DNA from: an uncultured virus (IMG/VR IMGVR_UViG_3300035521_000126)
Taxonomy: Duplodnaviria; Heunggongvirae; Uroviricota; Caudoviricetes
Direction: 5' to 3' (one strand)
IMG/VR virus record: IMGVR_UViG_3300035521_000126
Location: 52,105 to 72,104 of that record
DNA length: 20,000 bases
Made by a program: the position numbers and the translations under genes. Numbering within the stretch: position 1 is the first letter of the stretch; each line of letters starts with the position of its first letter. The notes under the pieces were generated by a model that saw only the letters and a program-made list of their open reading frames with translations, made no database searches and was not told the origin of the DNA. Below, piece after piece: positions 5,001 to 19,547 of this stretch.

Positions 5001-5675
5001 TTATATACCCCTTAATCTATTATTAGCTGTATTAAAATACTCTTCGTTAATCTCACAACCTATAAACTCTCTATTTAATTCTATTGCTGCAACTCCTGTG
5101 CTACCAGAACCCATAAATGGGTCAAATACAATTTCTCCTTCATTACTACTATTAATAATAAAGTTCTTCAAAATAAATACGGGTTTACAGGTTGGATGAT
5201 TAAACTGATGCTTGTCTTTTACATTTAATTTAGTAATATAATACGTGGATTTAGTTGTATAATTACCATAAATTCTAACTCCACGTTCTCTGAAAAATAA
5301 GATAAACTCTTTATCTGTAATATATTTATTTCCACAATTGGGGATTGGGTTGCTTTTAATCCAATCAATTATATTCCAATTACAACCCTTTTCTTTTACA
5401 AAATAATCAAGTAATGGAATAATTTGTTTTTGACTACAAAATATATAACAGTTTATTTTCTTCATTACCCTGCACATTTCATCCAAGGTTTCACGAGAGA
5501 ATCCATTTTTCATTTTAATAAGCTCTTTTACATAACGCTTATCAGATTTTTTATACATTCCTCTGCCGTCTGTATAAATTTCGTATGGAGGGTCTGTGAC
5601 AATTAAATCAATGCAATTATCAGGAAGATTTTTCATATATTCTAAACAATCATTATTATATATTTTAAACCCCAT
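5001..5675 (-). CDS. N4-C/N6-A DNA methyltransferase (beta-type motif order)
   Basis: Catalytic TDPPY precedes HPTCKP and SAM-binding DPFMGSGSTG. Confidence 0.93.
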   Translation of the reverse strand: MGFKIYNNDCLEYMKNLPDNCIDLIVTDPPYEIYTDGRGMYKKSDKRYVKELIKMKNGFSRETLDEMCRVMKKINCYIFCSQKQIIPLLDYFVKEKGCNWNIIDWIKSNPIPNCGNKYITDKEFILFFRERGVRIYGNYTTKSTYYITKLNVKDKHQFNHPTCKPVFILKNFIINSSNEGEIVFDPFMGSGSTGVAAIELNREFIGCEINEEYFNTANNRLRGI

Positions 5676-6462: not shown

Positions 6463-7215
6463 TCAATTCTCTAACTCTTTCAACCTATTTTTTGCGATAT
6501 TAAAGTATTCTTCATCTAATTCCATACCGATAAAATTTCTATTAGTATTTAAACAAGCAACTCCTGTACTTCCACTTCCCATACAGTTGTCCAAAACAAC
6601 ATCCCCCTCATTAGAATATGTCTTAATTAAATATTCTAATAAGGCAACTGGTTTCTGTGTTGGATGCAATTTTTCTTTATCTAAATTGAATTTTTGAATA
6701 GAACGAGGGTATCTAACTCCTTCATTTACGGTAATAACTTGTTCAATTTTAGAACGGACTACACTATTTCCTGTGTCCATTTTTTGCTTGCCACTTTTTT
6801 GCGTGTAAGACTCCCCAACTTCCATTTGTGGATTGTATATCATATTTCCTTTTTTAGAATATGAAGTAGCCATTTTACCAAATATCATAATATCTTCATG
6901 TACTTTTGCTGGTTGATACTTAAAATTCAAAAAATTCGCCCCACTTGGTTTTTCCCATTTCCAATCGTATTTGTACATCTTAATATTGCTAATTCTAAGA
7001 TAAGAAGAAAATGGTTCACAACCGAACAATACAATGGCTCTATCATCTTTGATAATACGGTTATATTGTTCCCATAATTTGTCAAATGGAATAACAACAT
7101 CCCATTTACAGGCGCTTGTACCATATGGCAAATCACATAAAATCATATCAATGGACTTATCTGGAATATTTTTCATTAATTCAAGGCAATCACCATTATA
7201 AATTTTATAACTCAT
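6463..7215 (-). CDS. N4-C/N6-A DNA methyltransferase (DLPY variant, beta-type motif order)
   Basis: CDLPY, HPTQKP and DNCMGSGSTG. Start reassigned to ATG 7215 (MSYKIYNGD), which follows RBS AGGAGA. The longer start in the ORF track lies at the terminator. Confidence 0.92.
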   Translation of the reverse strand: MSYKIYNGDCLELMKNIPDKSIDMILCDLPYGTSACKWDVVIPFDKLWEQYNRIIKDDRAIVLFGCEPFSSYLRISNIKMYKYDWKWEKPSGANFLNFKYQPAKVHEDIMIFGKMATSYSKKGNMIYNPQMEVGESYTQKSGKQKMDTGNSVVRSKIEQVITVNEGVRYPRSIQKFNLDKEKLHPTQKPVALLEYLIKTYSNEGDVVLDNCMGSGSTGVACLNTNRNFIGMELDEEYFNIAKNRLKELEN

Positions 7216-10101: not shown

Positions 10102-10317
10102 TCAAAAAACTTTGTCGATTGTCTTACCCTCATTGTTTAACAGGTAAGCCTTATCATGGATTGCGAGTACAATGCCCTTATCTTCCCTCATATCAACACA
10201 GATACACTCGGAATCCTTATCATAGTAGGTGGAACAATTATTCAGGCCGTCAATATAATTCCAACGGTCAAACGATTCACCATTCTTTTCAACTCTTGTC
10301 AAATACTTTAAAATCAT
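10102..10317 (-). CDS. Small hypothetical phage protein
   Basis: 71-aa ORF with a purine-rich RBS (AGAGAGGG) directly downstream of the tRNA. Confidence 0.7.
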   Translation of the reverse strand: MILKYLTRVEKNGESFDRWNYIDGLNNCSTYYDKDSECICVDMREDKGIVLAIHDKAYLLNNEGKTIDKVF

Positions 10318-10548: not shown

Positions 10549-10665
10549 TGGCACTTGGGGTTGGATTTGAACCAACAGTCTACGCCTTGATAATGGAAGA
10601 CTTTCTTGCTGTTACCGCCTAATAGACAGCATTTTCGTCGCTTTAACCAATTAAGCTACCCAAGT
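10549..10665 (-). ncRNA. 117-nt tRNA mimic whose anticodon arm is replaced by a structured insert (Y-RNA/YrlA-like candidate)
   Basis: Perfect acceptor ACTTGGG/CCCAAGT + G + CCA, canonical D arm TAGCTTAATTGGTTAAAGC and T arm GTTGG-TTCAAAT-CCAAC. The anticodon stem is reduced to ACG/CGT and encloses AAAA-TGCTGTCT-ATT-AGGCGGTA-ACAGCAA-GAAAGTCTTCCATTATCAAGG. Confidence 0.85.
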
Positions 10666-10674
10666 ATAATATTT

Positions 10675-10730
10675 AGACGCTATTTTCGTTTGAAACCAAA
10701 AACAAACCAAAATAATTGCTGTAAGCGTCT
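10675..10730 (-). ncRNA. Stand-alone stem-ACAGCAA RNA element
   Basis: AGACGCT-T-ACAGCAA-(U-rich region with GTTTG/CAAAC hairpin)-GAAAAT-AGCGTCT. The termini form a perfect 7-bp stem. Confidence 0.65.
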
Positions 10731-11496: not shown

Positions 11497-12612
11497 TTAT
11501 TCATAAATCATAAAGTCTTTCCCATAAATTGAATTGCACATATCAAATACGCGCCCCATACCCAAACCAGATTCACTAGGCATCCAAATTTGTTTTGGAT
11601 TCCAAATATCTTTATTGGTATTTAAAGAATCATATTGTGGGTTGTCTACCCATTGACCTCCATTAATACAATAATCATATTGTTTTGGGTGCGTCCAAGC
11701 CAATCTCTGAAAACGTGTTTCGCCCTTTTCAAGATGTAAACCATAAGCACAAAAAATACATCCTGTTCTAGTACAACCAGTGCATAAAAATTTTCCAGAT
11801 TTTTCGTCTTTTATGATTTCACCATAAACAGAACAAATTTGAAGCCCATATTTTACAATATATTCAAATATATCCTGTTCTGTCCAAAACGACAAAGGAT
11901 TACTGACTGGTTCTTTCATATAGAAACCGTTACAGCCATTTTTCAACCATTGCTGTCTTCTAAGCCATCCTTCTTCTGCCATTTGTCCAGTAATAGGAAA
12001 AACTTGTTGTTTGTGGGCATAATGTTTTACAGGACGTTTTTTCATAACCTTACAGCACTCGGAAGAAATATTAAATGGTAAATCATAAAGTGGTCTATAT
12101 TTTTGTATATTAAATACGCTATCAATTTCGCCATCATTTAAACGTCTCATAGACACAGAATAATTTCCATGAGACATACTAACACGAGCATCTTTAATAG
12201 CTCCCGACACCTCTTTTGAAATAATCGGATAGCCATAAATAGAAACAACATCTTTAAATGATAAATTATCTATATTAGAATGACCGTTTCGCTTTCCGGC
12301 ATTTCCCCACTTTGGGTTTAATACAATTACTCCATCAAAAGACTGTGCAAATTTTTGAATTTCTGGATATTCCAGTCCAGTATTTACAAAAACCACTGGG
12401 ATATTTTTATCTGGCAATGTTCGGCGTACAATATCAAGAAGAACTGTACTATCTTTGCCACCACTAAAACTTACATATATTCTTCCTTTAAAATGATTAT
12501 ACCACTCTAAGATACGCGTCTGACTAATTTGAACTTTGCGCTCCAATGGTAGCGCTTGTAATTCTTTAAGACGAGTGGAATCATGAATACTTGTGTCTCT
12601 ATAGTCGCTCAT
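11497..12612 (-). CDS. PAPS-reductase/DndC-family PP-loop protein with Fe-S cysteines
   Basis: YVSFSGGKDSTVL, NTGLEYPE, ECCKVMKKRP, PLSFWTEQDI and RTGCIFC. Confidence 0.88.
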   Translation of the reverse strand: MSDYRDTSIHDSTRLKELQALPLERKVQISQTRILEWYNHFKGRIYVSFSGGKDSTVLLDIVRRTLPDKNIPVVFVNTGLEYPEIQKFAQSFDGVIVLNPKWGNAGKRNGHSNIDNLSFKDVVSIYGYPIISKEVSGAIKDARVSMSHGNYSVSMRRLNDGEIDSVFNIQKYRPLYDLPFNISSECCKVMKKRPVKHYAHKQQVFPITGQMAEEGWLRRQQWLKNGCNGFYMKEPVSNPLSFWTEQDIFEYIVKYGLQICSVYGEIIKDEKSGKFLCTGCTRTGCIFCAYGLHLEKGETRFQRLAWTHPKQYDYCINGGQWVDNPQYDSLNTNKDIWNPKQIWMPSESGLGMGRVFDMCNSIYGKDFMIYE

Positions 12613-12624
12613 ATAAACCTCAAA

Positions 12625-13044
12625 TTAAAGAAGCTTAATTACTTCAGACACAGGCTTTATCTTCCAATTCTTTGTCTTTTCTGCCCTATTGATAATTTTA
12701 ATAATATCCCTAGAAGTGGAGGAAACTGAGCGGTCATTCAGATATTTTTCACGATACGCATTCAGTGTTTCGGAATCAGAACAAGTATTTTCCACCAAAT
12801 TTTGTTCTACATTCAACATCTCCCACATTGTATGTGTGGCGACCGTGTTGTTTCGACAACGGCAAGTTACAACGCTAAAAGGAATATCCCAGTCAGGACA
12901 AGCATAAGCGCACATATCTCCGTCATAAAAATTCTCGACCTTCATCTTCCGTTCATCCGTAACTCTGCCATCACGTTCATCAATAAACGTAAAATAAAGA
13001 TGCTTCTTATCATCCGATGTGTCCCATACAAAAATTCTTTCCAT
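12625..13044 (-). CDS. Hypothetical protein
   Basis: 139-aa ORF with RBS AAGGAG, first gene after a consensus promoter. Confidence 0.8.
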   Translation of the reverse strand: MERIFVWDTSDDKKHLYFTFIDERDGRVTDERKMKVENFYDGDMCAYACPDWDIPFSVVTCRCRNNTVATHTMWEMLNVEQNLVENTCSDSETLNAYREKYLNDRSVSSTSRDIIKIINRAEKTKNWKIKPVSEVIKLL

Positions 13045-13107
13045 AGTTGTCTTTCTCCTTTGTTATATTTAAATACACAGGGGAGTTGCCTCCCCTTATG
13101 TACCTAT

Positions 13108-13136: not shown

Positions 13137-13293
13137 GTGATTTCATCAGGTTTTCACTCTTTTTCTTGAAGAATTGACAGTAATTATCTGGCGCAGTATA
13201 ATCTGCGCACCACTCACTTTCTCCGCAGAAACAAACCCAGTTAAAATCTTCGTGCCATTCACAATTGCCACAGCACTCAGTCTTTTTAGTCAT
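13123..13293 (-). CDS. 56-aa Cys-rich putative metal-binding protein (below the ORF-track cutoff)
   Basis: RBS AAGGAG overlaps the upstream stop. Translation is MTKKTECCGNCEWHEDFNWVCFCGESEWCADYTAPDNYCQFFKKKSENLMKSLDKS*. Confidence 0.75.
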   Translation of the reverse strand: MTKKTECCGNCEWHEDFNWVCFCGESEWCADYTAPDNYCQFFKKKSENLMKSLDKS

Positions 13294-13302
13294 TCAAACT
13301 CC

Positions 13303-14760
13303 TTATGCCGTAATCATTGCATAACGCTCGTCACTCAGAGCCTTAATCATCGCCTCATAGCTATCATATCCGATAGATTCAAGAACATTCTTGAAAATCG
13401 CAGTAGACATACCAGAGAACTGACGAACTCCTTCTTGCTTTGCTCTTGCCTGAAAATTACCATAGCTATTTACGTTCCAGAACACAACTTCCGGCAAAGT
13501 ATAGCCATAAGTATTATACTTCTGCTTAATCTGGTCGTAGAACGTTAAACATCCCTTACGGAAACCAGTAACGCAATAATCCATCTGCATATCAGTAATA
13601 ACTACGATAGTCTTAGGCAAGTCCTCACTAGCTATGTTATTTTTGATTGCAGTCTTCAACACAAGCTCAAATGCCGCCTCAAGATTTGTATTATTACCCC
13701 AAGGAGCGCTTCTGACCTTATTAATCTTACTCCGCAGAGTACCTTCACGAAGTTCAATGAACTTAGGCCGCTCAGAGAAAGTCATAAACAGGTTGTGCCA
13801 ATCTCCCTTATTGCGCTCGGCAAAATAAATTGCCAAACCAATAGCAGCGTCCATAGGACGGCCATACATAGAACCAGAAGTATCTGCCATTACAAGAATA
13901 TTATTCTCGCCCTCGACATAGTTAGGCAGAGCTTTCCACTGCGCCTCTAAAACATCATCTTCCGCATAACTATTCTCGTATCTTTCAATGATGTCATAAG
14001 GGAACAACGTGGAAGCATTAATCTTCTTAGCGCCAGACTTCACAGCCTCCATGTACTTAGAAAAACCGATGTTGTCATGCTTAGAAAATGCCTTGGCGTA
14101 ATTCTTCATTGCATAAGAGGGAACAGCTTCGTAATTAATCTTAGACCACTCACGACCAGACATTTTAACTTCCGTAACATCAATGTACTTACGGAGTTTT
14201 GCAATAGTCTTCTGATAGGTGCGTGCGTCCATTCCCAGCTTCTTTGCGGTCAAATAACCAAGACGTACAGACTCCTTGGAACTGGTATTGACAGACTTGA
14301 CCCACTTAGCAGCCAGAGAAACAGACTTGCCAGCATTCATAGCCGCAATATCCTCAGAAATCTGCTCAACCAAAATCTGCCACATATCATTTTCAACGGG
14401 CGTTCCGATGAAAACATACATATCATCCCAACGACCGAAGAAAGGAACGTACTTCAAGTTCTTACGCATGACATCGGTATGGTTCGTAGCCAGCCAATGC
14501 CACATCTGACGAGCAGTCTCACGCTCACCCTGACCACCACGAGCATCACGACAATAGAACGTAATCTTCGTCGTTAAATCAGGACTTTCGTTAAAGGCCG
14601 CATAAAGCAAACTGGTCAAATCACTACGGTTCTCACGCATAGCGCCACACTGGGCAAACAAGTCAAGAACCGAACTACCAGTGGTATTAATAGCCAAAGC
14701 ACCATTAGTCGTAAGAGTACGAGAAGCTTCAGTACGTGCAGCATCAGTAAAAACACTCAT
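13303..14760 (-). CDS. DUF2828-type protein with a helical N-terminal region and a C-terminal vWA domain (TROVE/Ro60-like architecture)
   Basis: N-terminal TTNGA...TTG...LDLF, RDARGGQGER, FGRWDD, SLAAKW, INYEAVPS and INASTLFPYDI. vWA MIDAS residues: ADTSGSM, NTNL, ITDMQMD, and VFWNV. Family recognised from memory of these motifs. Confidence 0.8.
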   Translation of the reverse strand: MSVFTDAARTEASRTLTTNGALAINTTGSSVLDLFAQCGAMRENRSDLTSLLYAAFNESPDLTTKITFYCRDARGGQGERETARQMWHWLATNHTDVMRKNLKYVPFFGRWDDMYVFIGTPVENDMWQILVEQISEDIAAMNAGKSVSLAAKWVKSVNTSSKESVRLGYLTAKKLGMDARTYQKTIAKLRKYIDVTEVKMSGREWSKINYEAVPSYAMKNYAKAFSKHDNIGFSKYMEAVKSGAKKINASTLFPYDIIERYENSYAEDDVLEAQWKALPNYVEGENNILVMADTSGSMYGRPMDAAIGLAIYFAERNKGDWHNLFMTFSERPKFIELREGTLRSKINKVRSAPWGNNTNLEAAFELVLKTAIKNNIASEDLPKTIVVITDMQMDYCVTGFRKGCLTFYDQIKQKYNTYGYTLPEVVFWNVNSYGNFQARAKQEGVRQFSGMSTAIFKNVLESIGYDSYEAMIKALSDERYAMITA

Positions 14761-14763
14761 ATT

Positions 14764-14803
14764 AGATACTCCTTTAAATTCATTTTGTAGCTGTTTTGTA
14801 TCT
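14764..14803 (-). promoter_or_regulatory. 5'-UTR stem-ACAGCTA element overlapping the RBS of the DUF2828 gene
   Basis: AGATAC-AAA-ACAGCTA-CAAAATGAATTTAAAGGA-GTATCT-AAT-ATG. AGATAC pairs with GTATCT, and the Shine-Dalgarno AAGGAG runs into the 3' strand. Confidence 0.6.
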
Positions 14804-14816
14804 TCCGAACATCTAT

Positions 14817-14845
14817 ATTATAGCATATTTTTATTCTCTTGTCAA
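14817..14845 (-). promoter_or_regulatory. sigma70/sigmaA consensus promoter for the DUF2828 gene
   Basis: TTGACA-AGAGAATAAAAATATGC-TATAAT (17-nt spacer, TG extension). Confidence 0.9.
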
Positions 14846-14851
14846 GTGTTT

Positions 14852-16030
14852 TCAAGAATTTTCTTTTAGAATTTTTACAGTATCCACTAAAGCACCTATC
14901 AACGTGGAAATATTTTCAGTGGTAGTATTTTCATCGAAAGAAATTCTAATAGAAGAAGTGGGTATACTTATATCTTTCAAGGAATCATTTGACATTACAA
15001 TATTTGACAAAACATGACTTGCGCTCCCAGCTTCACAAGCAGAACCAGTGGAAACCTTTATGTCGTAAAGTTCATCCAAAGCAAGCATTAAAGATTCTGC
15101 ATGAACTCCATGAAACGCAATGTTAATAATACTACTAACACAATCATGTGAGGGAGAATTTACTCGGAAAGCATCTTTCCCAAGTCCATCTTCCAACCCT
15201 CTAATAATTGCTTTTTTAAAGTCATTATATTTAACGTCTATTTCATCAAAATTTACACAACGTAAATCATTAACGGCAGCGTTAAGGCCAGCAATACCAA
15301 GAATATTCTCTGTGCCACCACGTATTCCATCTTCTTGCTTGCCACCATAAATAAGAGTTGGTAGATGATAATATCTTTCATACTTCATTCCATCAGAAAT
15401 CCAGACAACACCAATTCCTTTAGGGGCATGAAATTTATGACCTGAAAATGTAGCAATATCAACTCCTAATTCCTGCATATTAATTTTCATATGAGGAAGA
15501 GCTTGGGTAATATCCGTATGGAAAATATACCCATGTGCATGAGCCATACTTGCCAACTTTTTAATGTCCTGAATCGTACCAATCTCATTATTTGCCATTA
15601 TGATTGATACCATTTTAACATACCATTCACTATCTTCTCCCCAGCTAAGAAATTGGTCGTACATATCAGGGTCTATAAAACCATATTCGTCTGTCTGTAA
15701 AATATTATAATTATAATCAAAATCTCTCTTATTTCCGTCAACACTCATAATAGAACTATGTTCGATTCCGCTTATAATTATTTTATCAACACTCTTATTG
15801 ATAACCCAAGTATTTGCTTCACTACCACTTGAGGTGAAATAAATTTTTCCGCCTCCACCATTCAACAGCAAATCAATATTTGTTTTAGTATCTTCAATAT
15901 ATTGCTTTACTTCCAGACCTTCTTTATATAAATTGCTAGGATTACAATTCAAACAATCCATAGCACGGTCAATTTCTTTTTTTACATTAGGACTTATAAA
16001 AGTCGTAGATGCTGAATCTAAATAAATCAA
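14852..16030 (-). CDS. iscS: Cysteine desulfurase (IscS/NifS family, PLP-dependent)
   Basis: IYLDSASTT, NPS, FTSSGSEAN, ANNEIGTIQ, HTD, SGHKFHAPKG (PLP lysine), RGGTEN and VSTGSAC (catalytic Cys). TTG start. Confidence 0.92.
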   Translation of the reverse strand: MIYLDSASTTFISPNVKKEIDRAMDCLNCNPSNLYKEGLEVKQYIEDTKTNIDLLLNGGGGKIYFTSSGSEANTWVINKSVDKIIISGIEHSSIMSVDGNKRDFDYNYNILQTDEYGFIDPDMYDQFLSWGEDSEWYVKMVSIIMANNEIGTIQDIKKLASMAHAHGYIFHTDITQALPHMKINMQELGVDIATFSGHKFHAPKGIGVVWISDGMKYERYYHLPTLIYGGKQEDGIRGGTENILGIAGLNAAVNDLRCVNFDEIDVKYNDFKKAIIRGLEDGLGKDAFRVNSPSHDCVSSIINIAFHGVHAESLMLALDELYDIKVSTGSACEAGSASHVLSNIVMSNDSLKDISIPTSSIRISFDENTTTENISTLIGALVDTVKILKENS

Positions 16031-16047
16031 AATTAACCACCAACCTA

Positions 16048-17307
16048 TTACATCTTATTGGCAATCTCCGCAATACGGCTACGATAAATCTTCTGCAATT
16101 CAACCTCGCCATAGATGTCCTCACCACGGAAAACCTCGGACATACGACGCATACCATTGTTGCTTCCCGCATACTGTGACATATCAACCTGAGTTTCATA
16201 GTCACCATCAATAATACAAATGCTATCAGAAGAAATTCTCTGTAATGCCAATTTCATAAGGGAAATATCAAGATTCTGAGCTTCAGTAATATACACGCCG
16301 CACTTTGTACCACGAGTATCAAATCCACGAATATCACACATAGGAAGAAGCTGAATCTTATGGTCATCAATAGCACGCTGTAATGCAATACTATCACCCA
16401 ACTTAGAAGTTAGCATAGTACCAATGGAGGCATCTGCCAACTTCTCGGAACGTGAGCCGGGGTAATAGCCGAGCTTTGCACTATTAATAGTTGCAACAGT
16501 ATTACAGAAAATGATAATAGTCTCAATCTTATGTTTTTCCAACAAAGAGAACAAATATGCCAGTGATAACAAACTCTTGCCAGTACCACTATCGCCCTTT
16601 ACCATGTTAATCTGGTTTGTACAAAGAGAATCAATGAAAATTTCCTGATAAATGTCCTTTGGCTTAATTTCGCCCTTTGCATCTCCAATGGTAGTAGTCT
16701 TTAAATTCTGGCGTTTAATTGCAACAAATTGAGTACCATTCCATTTCATAGCGTCAATTACAGAACCGTCAGGACGCTTCAAAATCAAATACTCATTCAT
16801 GATACAATTACAGAAATTATTATCTAAGTTCTGATAAATTTCAGCAAGAGCTTCATCGGAACTCACAATGACTTCTTCAAATCCTGTATATTTGTCATCT
16901 TCATTTTCTCTGATACCAAAAACAGGAAGCTCAAAAACATTCTTTGCGATATTTTTACAACTAATATCATCTGTAATAAAGTTTATAAACACGCCATCTT
17001 CTTGCTCTTTCTGATTATAAAGAAATGCTTCTGCAATAATAATATTATCAGGAGTACATTCAATTCCTTTATTAGAAAGTAATTCAAGAATTGCATTATA
17101 ATCAAAATTACAGACATAATAATTATCGTTATTGTCAAACAATCGAGCAAGTCTACGAGCCTTAAACTTCGTATCTTCGTCCTTGTGTCCAGAAGTTTTA
17201 ATATGCTCAATTTCTTCAAGAGTTTTATGAGAACAAACAAAAAAATCTTCAAAAGCCTTTTCTCCGAGATTTAATAGTGCGTTGGTGTCATAAAACTTTT
17301 CTACCAT
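16048..17307 (-). CDS. PIN-domain + PhoH ATPase fusion (PhoH2-like)
   Basis: PIN motifs YDTNAL, LEE, DNII and TDD. PhoH motifs GDSGTGKS, LGYYPG, IRG, TEAQN, GDYETQVD and RSRIA. Confidence 0.9.
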   Translation of the reverse strand: MVEKFYDTNALLNLGEKAFEDFFVCSHKTLEEIEHIKTSGHKDEDTKFKARRLARLFDNNDNYYVCNFDYNAILELLSNKGIECTPDNIIIAEAFLYNQKEQEDGVFINFITDDISCKNIAKNVFELPVFGIRENEDDKYTGFEEVIVSSDEALAEIYQNLDNNFCNCIMNEYLILKRPDGSVIDAMKWNGTQFVAIKRQNLKTTTIGDAKGEIKPKDIYQEIFIDSLCTNQINMVKGDSGTGKSLLSLAYLFSLLEKHKIETIIIFCNTVATINSAKLGYYPGSRSEKLADASIGTMLTSKLGDSIALQRAIDDHKIQLLPMCDIRGFDTRGTKCGVYITEAQNLDISLMKLALQRISSDSICIIDGDYETQVDMSQYAGSNNGMRRMSEVFRGEDIYGEVELQKIYRSRIAEIANKM

Positions 17308-17333
17308 ACATTCTATCCCCTTATTTTTATATT

Positions 17334-18248
17334 TTAATGTGATTCAACATCACAATAATGCAAATTTTGTACCTCTTCGTAAAAATCTTTACCCCACTTT
17401 TTCTCATACTTAGAACACTGCCCATTATTCCAGCCATAAGGCTTCATGTGCTGATTTACTAAGAAAAGAACGTGAAGTAATCCCTCTAAACTCAAATCAG
17501 AAAATTTCATGAACATACCGTCATACGCACTAATATTTTCGTGATTATAATAATGAGCTTCCTCAGTCTTTACACCGTCTCTATTACAAAATACCTTAGT
17601 CTTAGCTTTCCCAATATCATGAATCAATGCCGCATATCTCACATACTTGGAAAAATTATTCTTTTCTGCAATCTTATACGCCATTTTCATGTGTGAACCT
17701 AAAGACAAGGTATGATGGTGATTGTCCTGATTAAAGTCAGTCAAAGAATTTACAACTTCAACAGGGTCATAAGTTTCAAATTCAAGACCATTAACGAAAT
17801 TAATACTATCCCATCCCTCATTCCAATAAGGAATGTTAAAATTTTTGTACATACGATAAATTACATAATCAGGGACATCCTTTGACCGCATATGAGAACG
17901 GGCAATGCAATCATTGTACGAAGTGCGCATAATCATGCAGCTTGCATGAATCTTTCCGATACGCTTTTCAAGTCCTTTAACTCTTTGTAAGAGAGCTGTC
18001 CGATACCGAGAAGAAACATTACAAGCATCAAAGATTACGCTATTGCCACATTCAAGATTGACTTTAATACGTCTCTCTACTTCCTTAAAGACTTCCGAAT
18101 TATGGTCTTGATTTCCTTCGTCTCCATAAAATTCCTCACGAATTGCATCAGAAGAAATTACCACAAATCCTTCTTTTCTCCGCAAATTACAATAAGTAGA
18201 CTTGCCACTTGCAGGAAGTCCACACATCACAATAAACTGCAAAACCAT
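17334..18248 (-). CDS. Polynucleotide kinase (AAA_33) + HD phosphohydrolase fusion
   Basis: MCGLPASGKST, SSDAIR and FDACN, followed by HH...H, HDIGK, HYYNHE, HM and a terminal D (HD domain). Confidence 0.88.
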   Translation of the reverse strand: MVLQFIVMCGLPASGKSTYCNLRRKEGFVVISSDAIREEFYGDEGNQDHNSEVFKEVERRIKVNLECGNSVIFDACNVSSRYRTALLQRVKGLEKRIGKIHASCMIMRTSYNDCIARSHMRSKDVPDYVIYRMYKNFNIPYWNEGWDSINFVNGLEFETYDPVEVVNSLTDFNQDNHHHTLSLGSHMKMAYKIAEKNNFSKYVRYAALIHDIGKAKTKVFCNRDGVKTEEAHYYNHENISAYDGMFMKFSDLSLEGLLHVLFLVNQHMKPYGWNNGQCSKYEKKWGKDFYEEVQNLHYCDVESH

Positions 18249-18260
18249 TTCTATCCTCCT

Positions 18261-19547
18261 TTACTCAAAATTCGCCAATAATTTTACATCGTTATCAGTA
18301 GTTCCAAAACTACCATAAACTTTATAAAAAATGTTTGGATTTTGACCAATCATTTCTTCAAAAAAATTGTCAATACTACCAGTTTTGATATTATTACCGT
18401 CTTTATACTTTAGAATATTTCCATTTGTCTGGTCTAAATGGCTGATTGCTAAACTATAATCCCACCTAAAATCGCCAGTTTTTGGAAATTTTTCACGACA
18501 TTTACGAGAATCGGCAGCAATTCTTGTATACAAACTACTAGGACTAATTAAACCAAATTTTGGTTCTCCACACCATAAAGTTTTTACGTTAGTATCTTCT
18601 TTGATTTTATCCGAAATAAAAAATTTATTATATTCTTCAAATCTGCCAGTACCATACCTCATATTGTACCAACGGGAACAATAAATAACTTCAATGTCAT
18701 GGCTACAATCAAGTTCATTGTGAGCAATGTATTTATTGAAGAAATTAAGACCAGTATGATACGCACAGCAATCATCTACGCCATAAAAAGCAACAGAATT
18801 TCTCAAACCAAGAGAGCCTTCAAAAATAATATTTTTAAAATTATACAAAATGCAATACTCTCTTTTGTTAGAAACAAGTGTAAATACCGATGAATGAGTA
18901 GTTATATGACTAAGAAAAAACATTAAATCATCAATGTACTTGTCAAGGTTTGAATCACTATGCAAATACGAATAATTGTTTAGAATTTCAAGCACTCCAT
19001 TCGGAGCATTTTTAAGAACTATCTCATTGATATATCCGTCCCTTAATCCATGCAAATAGTTCTTAAAACTATCAACTGTCATATTAAGACAATCAGAAAC
19101 TTTCAGCCTATATTTTGCGTCTCCATTATTACGCTGAATAGTATTAGTGATTCCAAATCCACTTGTGCTTCTTTTTCCTTTATTATAATCATACAAAGTA
19201 CGACAAATAGCAACATCAAAAGGAGTGGTAATTCTGCAATTTTCATTTACATAAATAATTGGCGTTACACCAAGTTTTTCCAACTGCTCCCACTCGCTTC
19301 TAAACTCACTTGGATTAACAATAAATTCATCGGCAAGATAGGTAGGAGCGCCCTTTAACGTACCAGAACCAAAATGATGAAAAATATGGCGAATCCCATT
19401 ATGACAAACTGTGTGACCAGAATTTACTCCACCGTTACACCTCACAACAAGAGTATCTTTATCAGCGAAATAATTGACCATATGCCCGACACAAGAATTG
19501 CCATATCCAGAATCAAGAATAACTTTTACAAATCCAGTTCTTACCAT
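18261..19547 (-). CDS. Divergent adenylosuccinate synthetase (PurA) homologue with a degenerate active site
   Basis: RCNGGVNSGHTV, FHHFGSGTL, IVNP, ITTPFD, IFEGSLG, EDTN and ISHLD match PurA-family motifs. The P-loop GDEGKG reads GNSCVG here. Confidence 0.8.
   Translation of the reverse strand: MVRTGFVKVILDSGYGNSCVGHMVNYFADKDTLVVRCNGGVNSGHTVCHNGIRHIFHHFGSGTLKGAPTYLADEFIVNPSEFRSEWEQLEKLGVTPIIYVNENCRITTPFDVAICRTLYDYNKGKRSTSGFGITNTIQRNNGDAKYRLKVSDCLNMTVDSFKNYLHGLRDGYINEIVLKNAPNGVLEILNNYSYLHSDSNLDKYIDDLMFFLSHITTHSSVFTLVSNKREYCILYNFKNIIFEGSLGLRNSVAFYGVDDCCAYHTGLNFFNKYIAHNELDCSHDIEVIYCSRWYNMRYGTGRFEEYNKFFISDKIKEDTNVKTLWCGEPKFGLISPSSLYTRIAADSRKCREKFPKTGDFRWDYSLAISHLDQTNGNILKYKDGNNIKTGSIDNFFEEMIGQNPNIFYKVYGSFGTTDNDVKLLANFE

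Follow-up and report, generated by a model that had tools for sequence, protein, structure and literature searches.

The leader of the DUF2828 gene in the phage DNA analysed here is a minimal copy of a stem-plus-ACAGCAA RNA handle that is laid over the ribosome binding site (RBS) of the gene, and the same arrangement recurs among homologues. On balance we consider it probable that this leader handle acts as an autogenous translational repressor site for the DUF2828 protein, with both the binding and the sign of control being predictions. The RBS-overlapping handle is a minority design; most DUF2828 genes have a handle farther off or none.

A handle copy covers the RBS of the DUF2828 gene

The window, i.e. 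the whole stretch of 20,000 nucleotides that was analysed, is the terminal 20 kb of a 72-kb virus record. The earlier note had described a consensus promoter before the DUF2828 gene and a short leader consisting almost entirely of a motif copy named C. Both descriptions hold: the promoter is a perfect TTGACA-17-TATAAT on the minus strand (12/12 matches), and the 40-nt element makes up ~80% of a leader of ~50 nt, as counted from a start site inferred from the promoter (Table 1). The junction with the gene is also as described, the last G of the Shine-Dalgarno sequence (SD; AAGGAG) being the first base of GTATCT, which stops 3 nt short of the ATG, and copy C is indeed imperfect, with a 6-bp stem (AGATAC/GTATCT) and the core ACAGCTA. 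The leader element overlaps the SD and start region of its own gene, as is expected of an autogenous translational operator.

Table 1. Positions in the window of the DUF2828 gene, the parts of its leader and RNAs A and B
Feature	Position	Strand	Remark
-35 hexamer TTGACA	14840..14845	-	12/12 consensus
TG-extended -10 hexamer TATAAT	14817..14822	-	17 nt from -35
Transcription start	near 14810-14811	-	inferred from promoter position
Leader handle stem, 5' strand AGATAC	14798..14803	-	followed by 3 nt, then the core
Unpaired core ACAGCTA	14788..14794	-	variant of ACAGCAA
Shine-Dalgarno AAGGAG	14769..14774	-	inside the loop; last G is first base of 3' stem strand
Leader handle stem, 3' strand GTATCT	14764..14769	-	forms the SD-ATG spacer; ends 3 nt before ATG
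DUF2828/DUF7788/vWA gene	13303..14760	-	485 aa; PHROG 850; ATG at 14760
RNA A	10675..10730	-	free-standing handle; 7-bp stem, perfect ACAGCAA core, inner hairpin
RNA B	10552..10665	-	tRNA-like gene; permuted handle in anticodon arm

Two stronger copies, RNAs A and B, lie ~4 kb downstream of the leader. A stretch of ~51 nt in the anticodon arm of RNA B holds the handle in circularly permuted form, with a hairpin (10631-10613) that is followed by the core ACAGCAA (10612-10606). The stem and core of the leader match those of RNAs A and B and of the handles found in arrays. We infer that RNAs A and B and the array handles are targets of the DUF2828 protein, and propose RNA A as its candidate main ligand and competitor, and RNA B as a candidate ligand.

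Taken alone, the stem of the window leader is weak (-3.5 kcal/mol); its fold has a z of 0.11, with 102 of 200 shuffles folding equally well, and its predicted pairing probability ranges from 0.47 to 0.87 with the ends chosen. As the stem by itself is marginal and not above chance, the case rests on the homologues. Across the 72-kb genome a loose handle detector gave 11 matches, and 30 shuffles averaged 2.7. Only one of these 11, the leader, enclosed an SD and had an ATG no more than 6 nt away (list read by eye), and none of the 30 shuffled genomes gave such a match. Among the six 12/12 promoters of the minus strand, that of DUF2828 alone was followed by the core in the next 70 nt. Three metatranscriptome contigs (X1-X3) contain small pieces of a related phage, their coverage falling outside the leader and RNAs A and B.

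The window has seven perfect TTGACA-17-TATAAT promoters in all, and the six on the minus strand are all TG-extended; the plus-strand promoter (13174-13202) lies inside a 56-aa ORF and points back to the DUF2828 gene. A strong 7-bp GC-rich terminator-like hairpin (13079-13096, minus strand), which could be an attenuator or a 5' stabiliser, is situated between a 12/12 promoter (13136-13108) and a 139-aa ORF at 13044. The minus strand carries replication, methylase, PhoH and IscS-like genes. The group at 5001-5675 and 6463-7215, 11497-12612 and 14852-19547 comprises two N6/N4 methylases and a PAPS-reductase-domain protein together with further genes (IscS-like, PhoH, AAA-HD and adenylosuccinate-synthetase-like), and a role of the IscS/PAPS pair in DNA or tRNA modification is possible.

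The DUF2828 protein is Ro60-like by predicted fold

The domains found in the DUF2828 protein are DUF2828, DUF7788 and VWA_2, and it belongs to PHROG 850. An AlphaFold model built with 58 homologues had a pLDDT of 90.4, and all 13 best Foldseek matches to this model were Ro60 structures. The likeness to Ro60 spans the entire length of the model; VIA-align of the model with 2i91 gave a Z of 24.2 and an rmsd of 3.8 over 411 aligned residues. The predicted architecture is a helical-repeat ring closed by a vWA domain, as in Ro60/TROVE proteins, and the MIDAS DxSxS residues of the vWA domain (D293, S295, S297) are invariant in the 58 homologues. At the level of sequence, a Pfam search at E 0.1 found DUF2828, DUF7788 and VWA_2 and no match to the TROVE family, and a phmmer search of the PDB found no Ro60 chain. 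The DUF2828 protein is, by its model, Ro60-like in predicted fold and outside the Ro60 family by sequence. The family comprises 4239 clusters at E values up to 1e-30; the papers found on DUF2828, as judged by title, were on plants or tardigrades only.

Handles are linked to DUF2828 genes

Loci were taken from viral, genome and metagenome contigs and from 25 annotated phages; 429 loci yielded 422 called DUF2828 genes, which fell into 138 clusters at 70% identity. To keep selection bias out, 103 loci that had been picked by leader patterns (99 + 4) were left out of the counts. As controls we used 682 other same-strand ORFs, excluding those starting within 450 nt before a DUF2828 gene; start codons were picked by script and some are possibly wrong. 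Handles were called with a relaxed detector lacking the outer-pair requirement, as the stricter form misses the KVP40 type.

A handle was present within 400 nt upstream of DUF2828 in 99 of the 138 clusters, compared with 1.7 in shuffles and with 43/682 control ORFs; downstream of the gene it was found in 24 of 125 clusters. The last stem ended within 6 nt of the DUF2828 start or covered it in 6 clusters, 7-12 nt from it in 5, 13-20 nt in 19 and farther than 20 nt in 69, and no upstream handle was detected in 39/138, a count that is an upper bound since the relaxed detector still misses some handles (L024, phiM12). In the 6 clusters of the closest class the SD is enclosed by the stem, which either stops 2-4 nt short of the start codon or takes that codon into its pairing; shuffles predict 0.13 of 138 for this form. 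Closeness to the start set DUF2828 apart from the controls both within 20 nt (30/138 vs 4/682) and within 6 nt or over the start (6/138 vs 2/682; Fisher p 4e-4, a p value that, like those of the other position tests, overstates the significance because the clusters are related). The two control genes with a handle within 6 nt look like chance pairings. When only handle-bearing genes were compared, DUF2828 genes still had more handles within 20 nt (30/99 vs 4/43; p 0.009, with the same reservation), and the two groups did not differ within 6 nt (6/99 vs 2/43; p 1.0).

Other collections gave further counts. In an earlier, smaller set, 34/77 DUF2828 genes had a handle within 20 nt as against 3/24 others. 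Among 29 further clusters, mostly reached from the motif side, 19 had a handle, 4 of them within 20 nt and one overlapping (L598), and in 10 none was detected. Starting from the motif, DUF2828 was in the locus for 31 of 44 distinct motifs (loci of at least 15 kb), and the gene was found in 58 of 111 motif loci, always on the strand of the motif (58/58). Two random genome samples gave few DUF2828 genes (5/401 and 3/401). Among 84 distinct exact-pattern motifs, 2 had their end no more than 25 nt from the start of a gene; in one case this gene is DUF2828.

Handles ending 16 nt before genes other than DUF2828 were seen at L015 10066 (a 133-aa unknown protein) and at L364 703 (a DUF3307 protein), and these genes may be further targets of regulation, or the positions may reflect packing. 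In L175 and L024 (~40 nt before 5917) a promoter-proximal solo handle ends 15 nt before the start; in the L024 leader the stem is kept and the core has decayed.

The RBS-overlapping form recurs among homologues

The earlier note had reasoned that regulation would be doubtful if the leaders of homologues lacked the stem and the core. On inspection both are kept, and the overlapping form is found at five separate places on the protein tree, a distribution that we read as convergent: the window clade, the KVP40 clade, L445, L143 and L598, each having non-overlapping sister lineages (trees by FastTree only, midpoint-rooted). The window clade consists of the window, L013, L015 and L018 (50-52% identity to the window protein; support 0.93-0.99), and its SD-ATG spacer is GTATCT or GTGTCT, accompanied by a matching AGATAC or AGACAC. 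KVP40-like Vibrio phages (5/5 fetched; gene 0300 in KVP40) show the order promoter-like sequence, GACAT, core, SD, ATGTC, and GACAT pairs with ATGTC such that the start codon itself forms the 3' strand; ATGTC is partly fixed by Met-Ser and is also present in homologues without a leader handle. The L598 handle is promoter-proximal and its 3' strand again shares the last G of the SD. In one tree L185 branches as the sister of the window clade; its promoter leader contains no handle.

Comparison of 11 leaders revealed that pair 4 is T-A or C-G and pair 6 is C-G, T-G or T-A, i.e. two stem positions vary on both sides or by wobble across the overlap leaders; MAFFT set four short leaders out of register, and pairs were counted by script. 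The stem energies of the overlap leaders range from -0.8 to -5.3 kcal/mol, and predicted pairing is low in L013, L018 and L445 (0.11-0.17). AGATAC and GTATCT form a perfect inverted repeat that closely follows the promoter, and the folding z is near zero (0.11), as would fit a DNA operator or mere chance; the spacer of 25-41 nt, the G-U pairs and the one-sided core speak against this, as do the shuffle expectation of 0.13 of 138 and the RNA-binding type of the predicted fold. We regard a DNA operator or chance as highly improbable, and the DNA-operator reading was rejected given its variable spacer and G-U pairs.

The overlap could also be a relic of compaction: the final RNA of an array that lay upstream in an ancestor would have shifted over the RBS, where it is tolerated with no regulatory role. 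Upstream arrays are the norm (99/138), in L143 the overlap copy is the last of two upstream copies, and, among handle-bearing genes, overlap is no more frequent for DUF2828 than for the others (p 1.0). However, the window and KVP40 clades have a solo copy, often 11-17 nt behind its own promoter and kilobases away from arrays, and stem and core have been kept with compensatory change over ~50% protein divergence while the loops differ. A relic is in our judgement unlikely, and we favor a regulatory site.

Scans with window-type patterns returned 99 stretches, 18 of them with a start within 8 nt, and all 10 with AGGAG were DUF2828 genes; these scans found only the three lineages that had been used for writing the patterns, plus mostly chance matches. 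The KVP40-type scan gave 4 matches, KVP40 itself and 3 in an unrelated ORF. Free handle copies elsewhere in the locus or genome accompany the leader copy in the window, L013, L015, L018 and KVP40. Those of KVP40 (L642), a cultured phage, at 176087 and 179558 lie in the tRNA cluster near annotated pseudo-tRNAs.

The imperfection of copy C had been taken to indicate a lower-affinity operator, and this part of the earlier proposal fits weakly. The overlap copies (n=6) have on average slightly shorter stems than the other upstream copies (6.0 vs 6.9 pairs), and the core is perfect in 3/6 as against 109/144, the number of overlap copies being tiny.

A literature search covering mainly open-access papers turned up neither a description of this RNA handle nor one of autoregulation in Ro60-type genes, and no paper showing the RBS-overlapping form. 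The handle was not found in the parts of the PMC10690425 supplement that were searched; the catalogue of PMC10690425 or that of PMC5737381 could include the motif unnamed.

Discussion

The fold, the genetic linkage and the analogy to Ro60 and Y RNA suggest that the DUF2828 protein binds handles. The naked leader stem would be too weak to stop the 30S subunit, so that ribosomes would enter, while a bound ring would hold the stem shut and cover the SD, and initiation would be blocked. RNAs A and B would bind tighter and take the protein first, and the leader would be bound once the partner RNAs are saturated. Once the ring had become about as abundant as the RNA, its synthesis would cease, a feedback that would match the amount of ring to that of RNA. 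This titration-plus-leader logic is that of the ribosomal-protein operators. Because the SD lies within the handle, as does the spacer or start codon, excision of the handle would destroy or truncate the RBS, indicating that the handle is part of the mRNA.

Negative feedback might instead work through decay or processing, a nuclease cutting or degrading the message once its leader is bound, or maturing the leader into a handle RNA at the expense of the RBS. Ro60/Y RNA particles recruit PNPase (PMC4201824, PMC12135203), array handles presumably must be excised from longer transcripts, and a cut at the 3' end of the stem would remove the SD in the window and the start codon in KVP40. The leader copies, however, have minimal loops, free of the tRNA-like inserts that many array copies carry, and most of them are without the 3' TG/AG tail of array copies; we think this route quite unlikely. 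The protein could even act positively, by opening the stem or shielding the 5' end, leading to more translation or mRNA stability. In PMC12135203 Xenopus Ro60 is described as entering the stem of the Y RNA and splitting the helix, and the Ro60-Yrl of a Thermus phage as slowing PNPase. Stems of -0.8 to -5.3 kcal/mol seem too weak to need opening, though, and a ring of 55 kDa next to the SD would be expected to impede the 30S subunit; positive control thus appears very unlikely to us. Vertebrate Ro60 is reported (PMC4201824, PMC12135203) to contact mainly the 5' strand and to pull the helix apart, and given this mode of contact the sign of leader control could be either.

Returning to autogenous repression, a broader reading that we offer tentatively, and with less than even confidence, is that the DUF2828 rings form a second lineage of Ro60 and keep count of their partner RNAs, that phages have grafted the handle onto the RBS of the ring gene itself at least five times, and that the much commoner handles ending 13-20 nt from the start act alike. 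If true, the handle tethers tRNA-like RNAs and also serves as a portable translation switch gated by the protein; no earlier autogenous operator would be known for a protein of Ro60 fold, and the leader would give an in vivo read-out of what the orphan RNAs bind. So far the protein partner of this widespread, uncatalogued handle has been inferred from gene neighbourhood alone; the repeated occurrence of the handle on the RBS of DUF2828, and not on that of other genes, provides independent genetic evidence that the DUF2828 protein reads it. The 50-nt leader is usable as a reporter, which would make a simple assay of handle binding. A feedback of this kind would mean that matching quantities of ring and RNA are required, in a family that includes one anti-defence member.

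Autogenous operators that mimic the main RNA target of the protein are known from the L1, S8 and S15 leaders, E. coli thrS and T4 gene 32. The leader handle resembles these operators in being a weak copy of the presumed site on the RBS of its own gene, with stronger sites elsewhere, and differs from them in its predicted regulator, a Ro60-fold ring, and in having small handle RNAs as the predicted competitor.

The anti-defence member is gp130 of Bas63 (Felixounavirus), which counters the ppl defence (PMC11482910) and is the only homologue with a phenotype. It is a homologous protein (34% identity over the full length), and Bas63 has handles among the tRNA genes downstream; its leader, in contrast, has no handle, so that leader control is absent there. 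Felixounavirus leaders without a handle (L643 ~10250-10295, which is Bas63, and L355 ~1430-1470) carry a 9-bp inverted repeat, TGACAGACT / AGTCTGTCA, over the promoter, which is possibly a DNA operator or a hairpin.

Dictyostelid Class I RNAs (RF01414; PMC7919456) share with the leader handle a short terminal stem, a conserved unpaired motif by the 5' strand and a variable loop. They are eukaryotic, are encoded by genes of their own with a DUSE promoter and have an RRM partner, whereas the leader copy is part of an mRNA. At the five invariant positions of their 11-nt motif (T, C, C, A and A at 3, 6, 9, 10 and 11; PMC7919456), and in the register chosen here, the leader agrees at 3/5 and RNA A at 5/5. 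Covariance models of Class I RNA (RF01414) and YrlA (RF02553) gave no match to the handle, and an Rfam search at gathering and E-value thresholds found only tRNAs, with weaker matches attributable to chance.

The closest relatives in fold are the Ro60 systems. The DUF2828 protein shares 11-17% identity with solved Ro60 structures and has no TROVE Pfam match, and the handle core is ACAGCWA, not the GGUCCGA/CGAA of the Ro-binding terminal stem of Y RNA/YrlA (PMC4201824, PMC12135203). A term search of the main text of these two papers found no instance of 'autoregul'. The likeness is in the organization: Ro60/Rsr with Y RNA (YrlA/YrlB, RF02553; PMC4201824) and the Ro60 of Thermus phage phiLo with Yrl1/Yrl2 (PMC12135203) likewise combine a helical-repeat ring closed by a vWA domain with small RNAs that have a terminal stem and often tRNA parts, and that lie beside the gene and often upstream of it.
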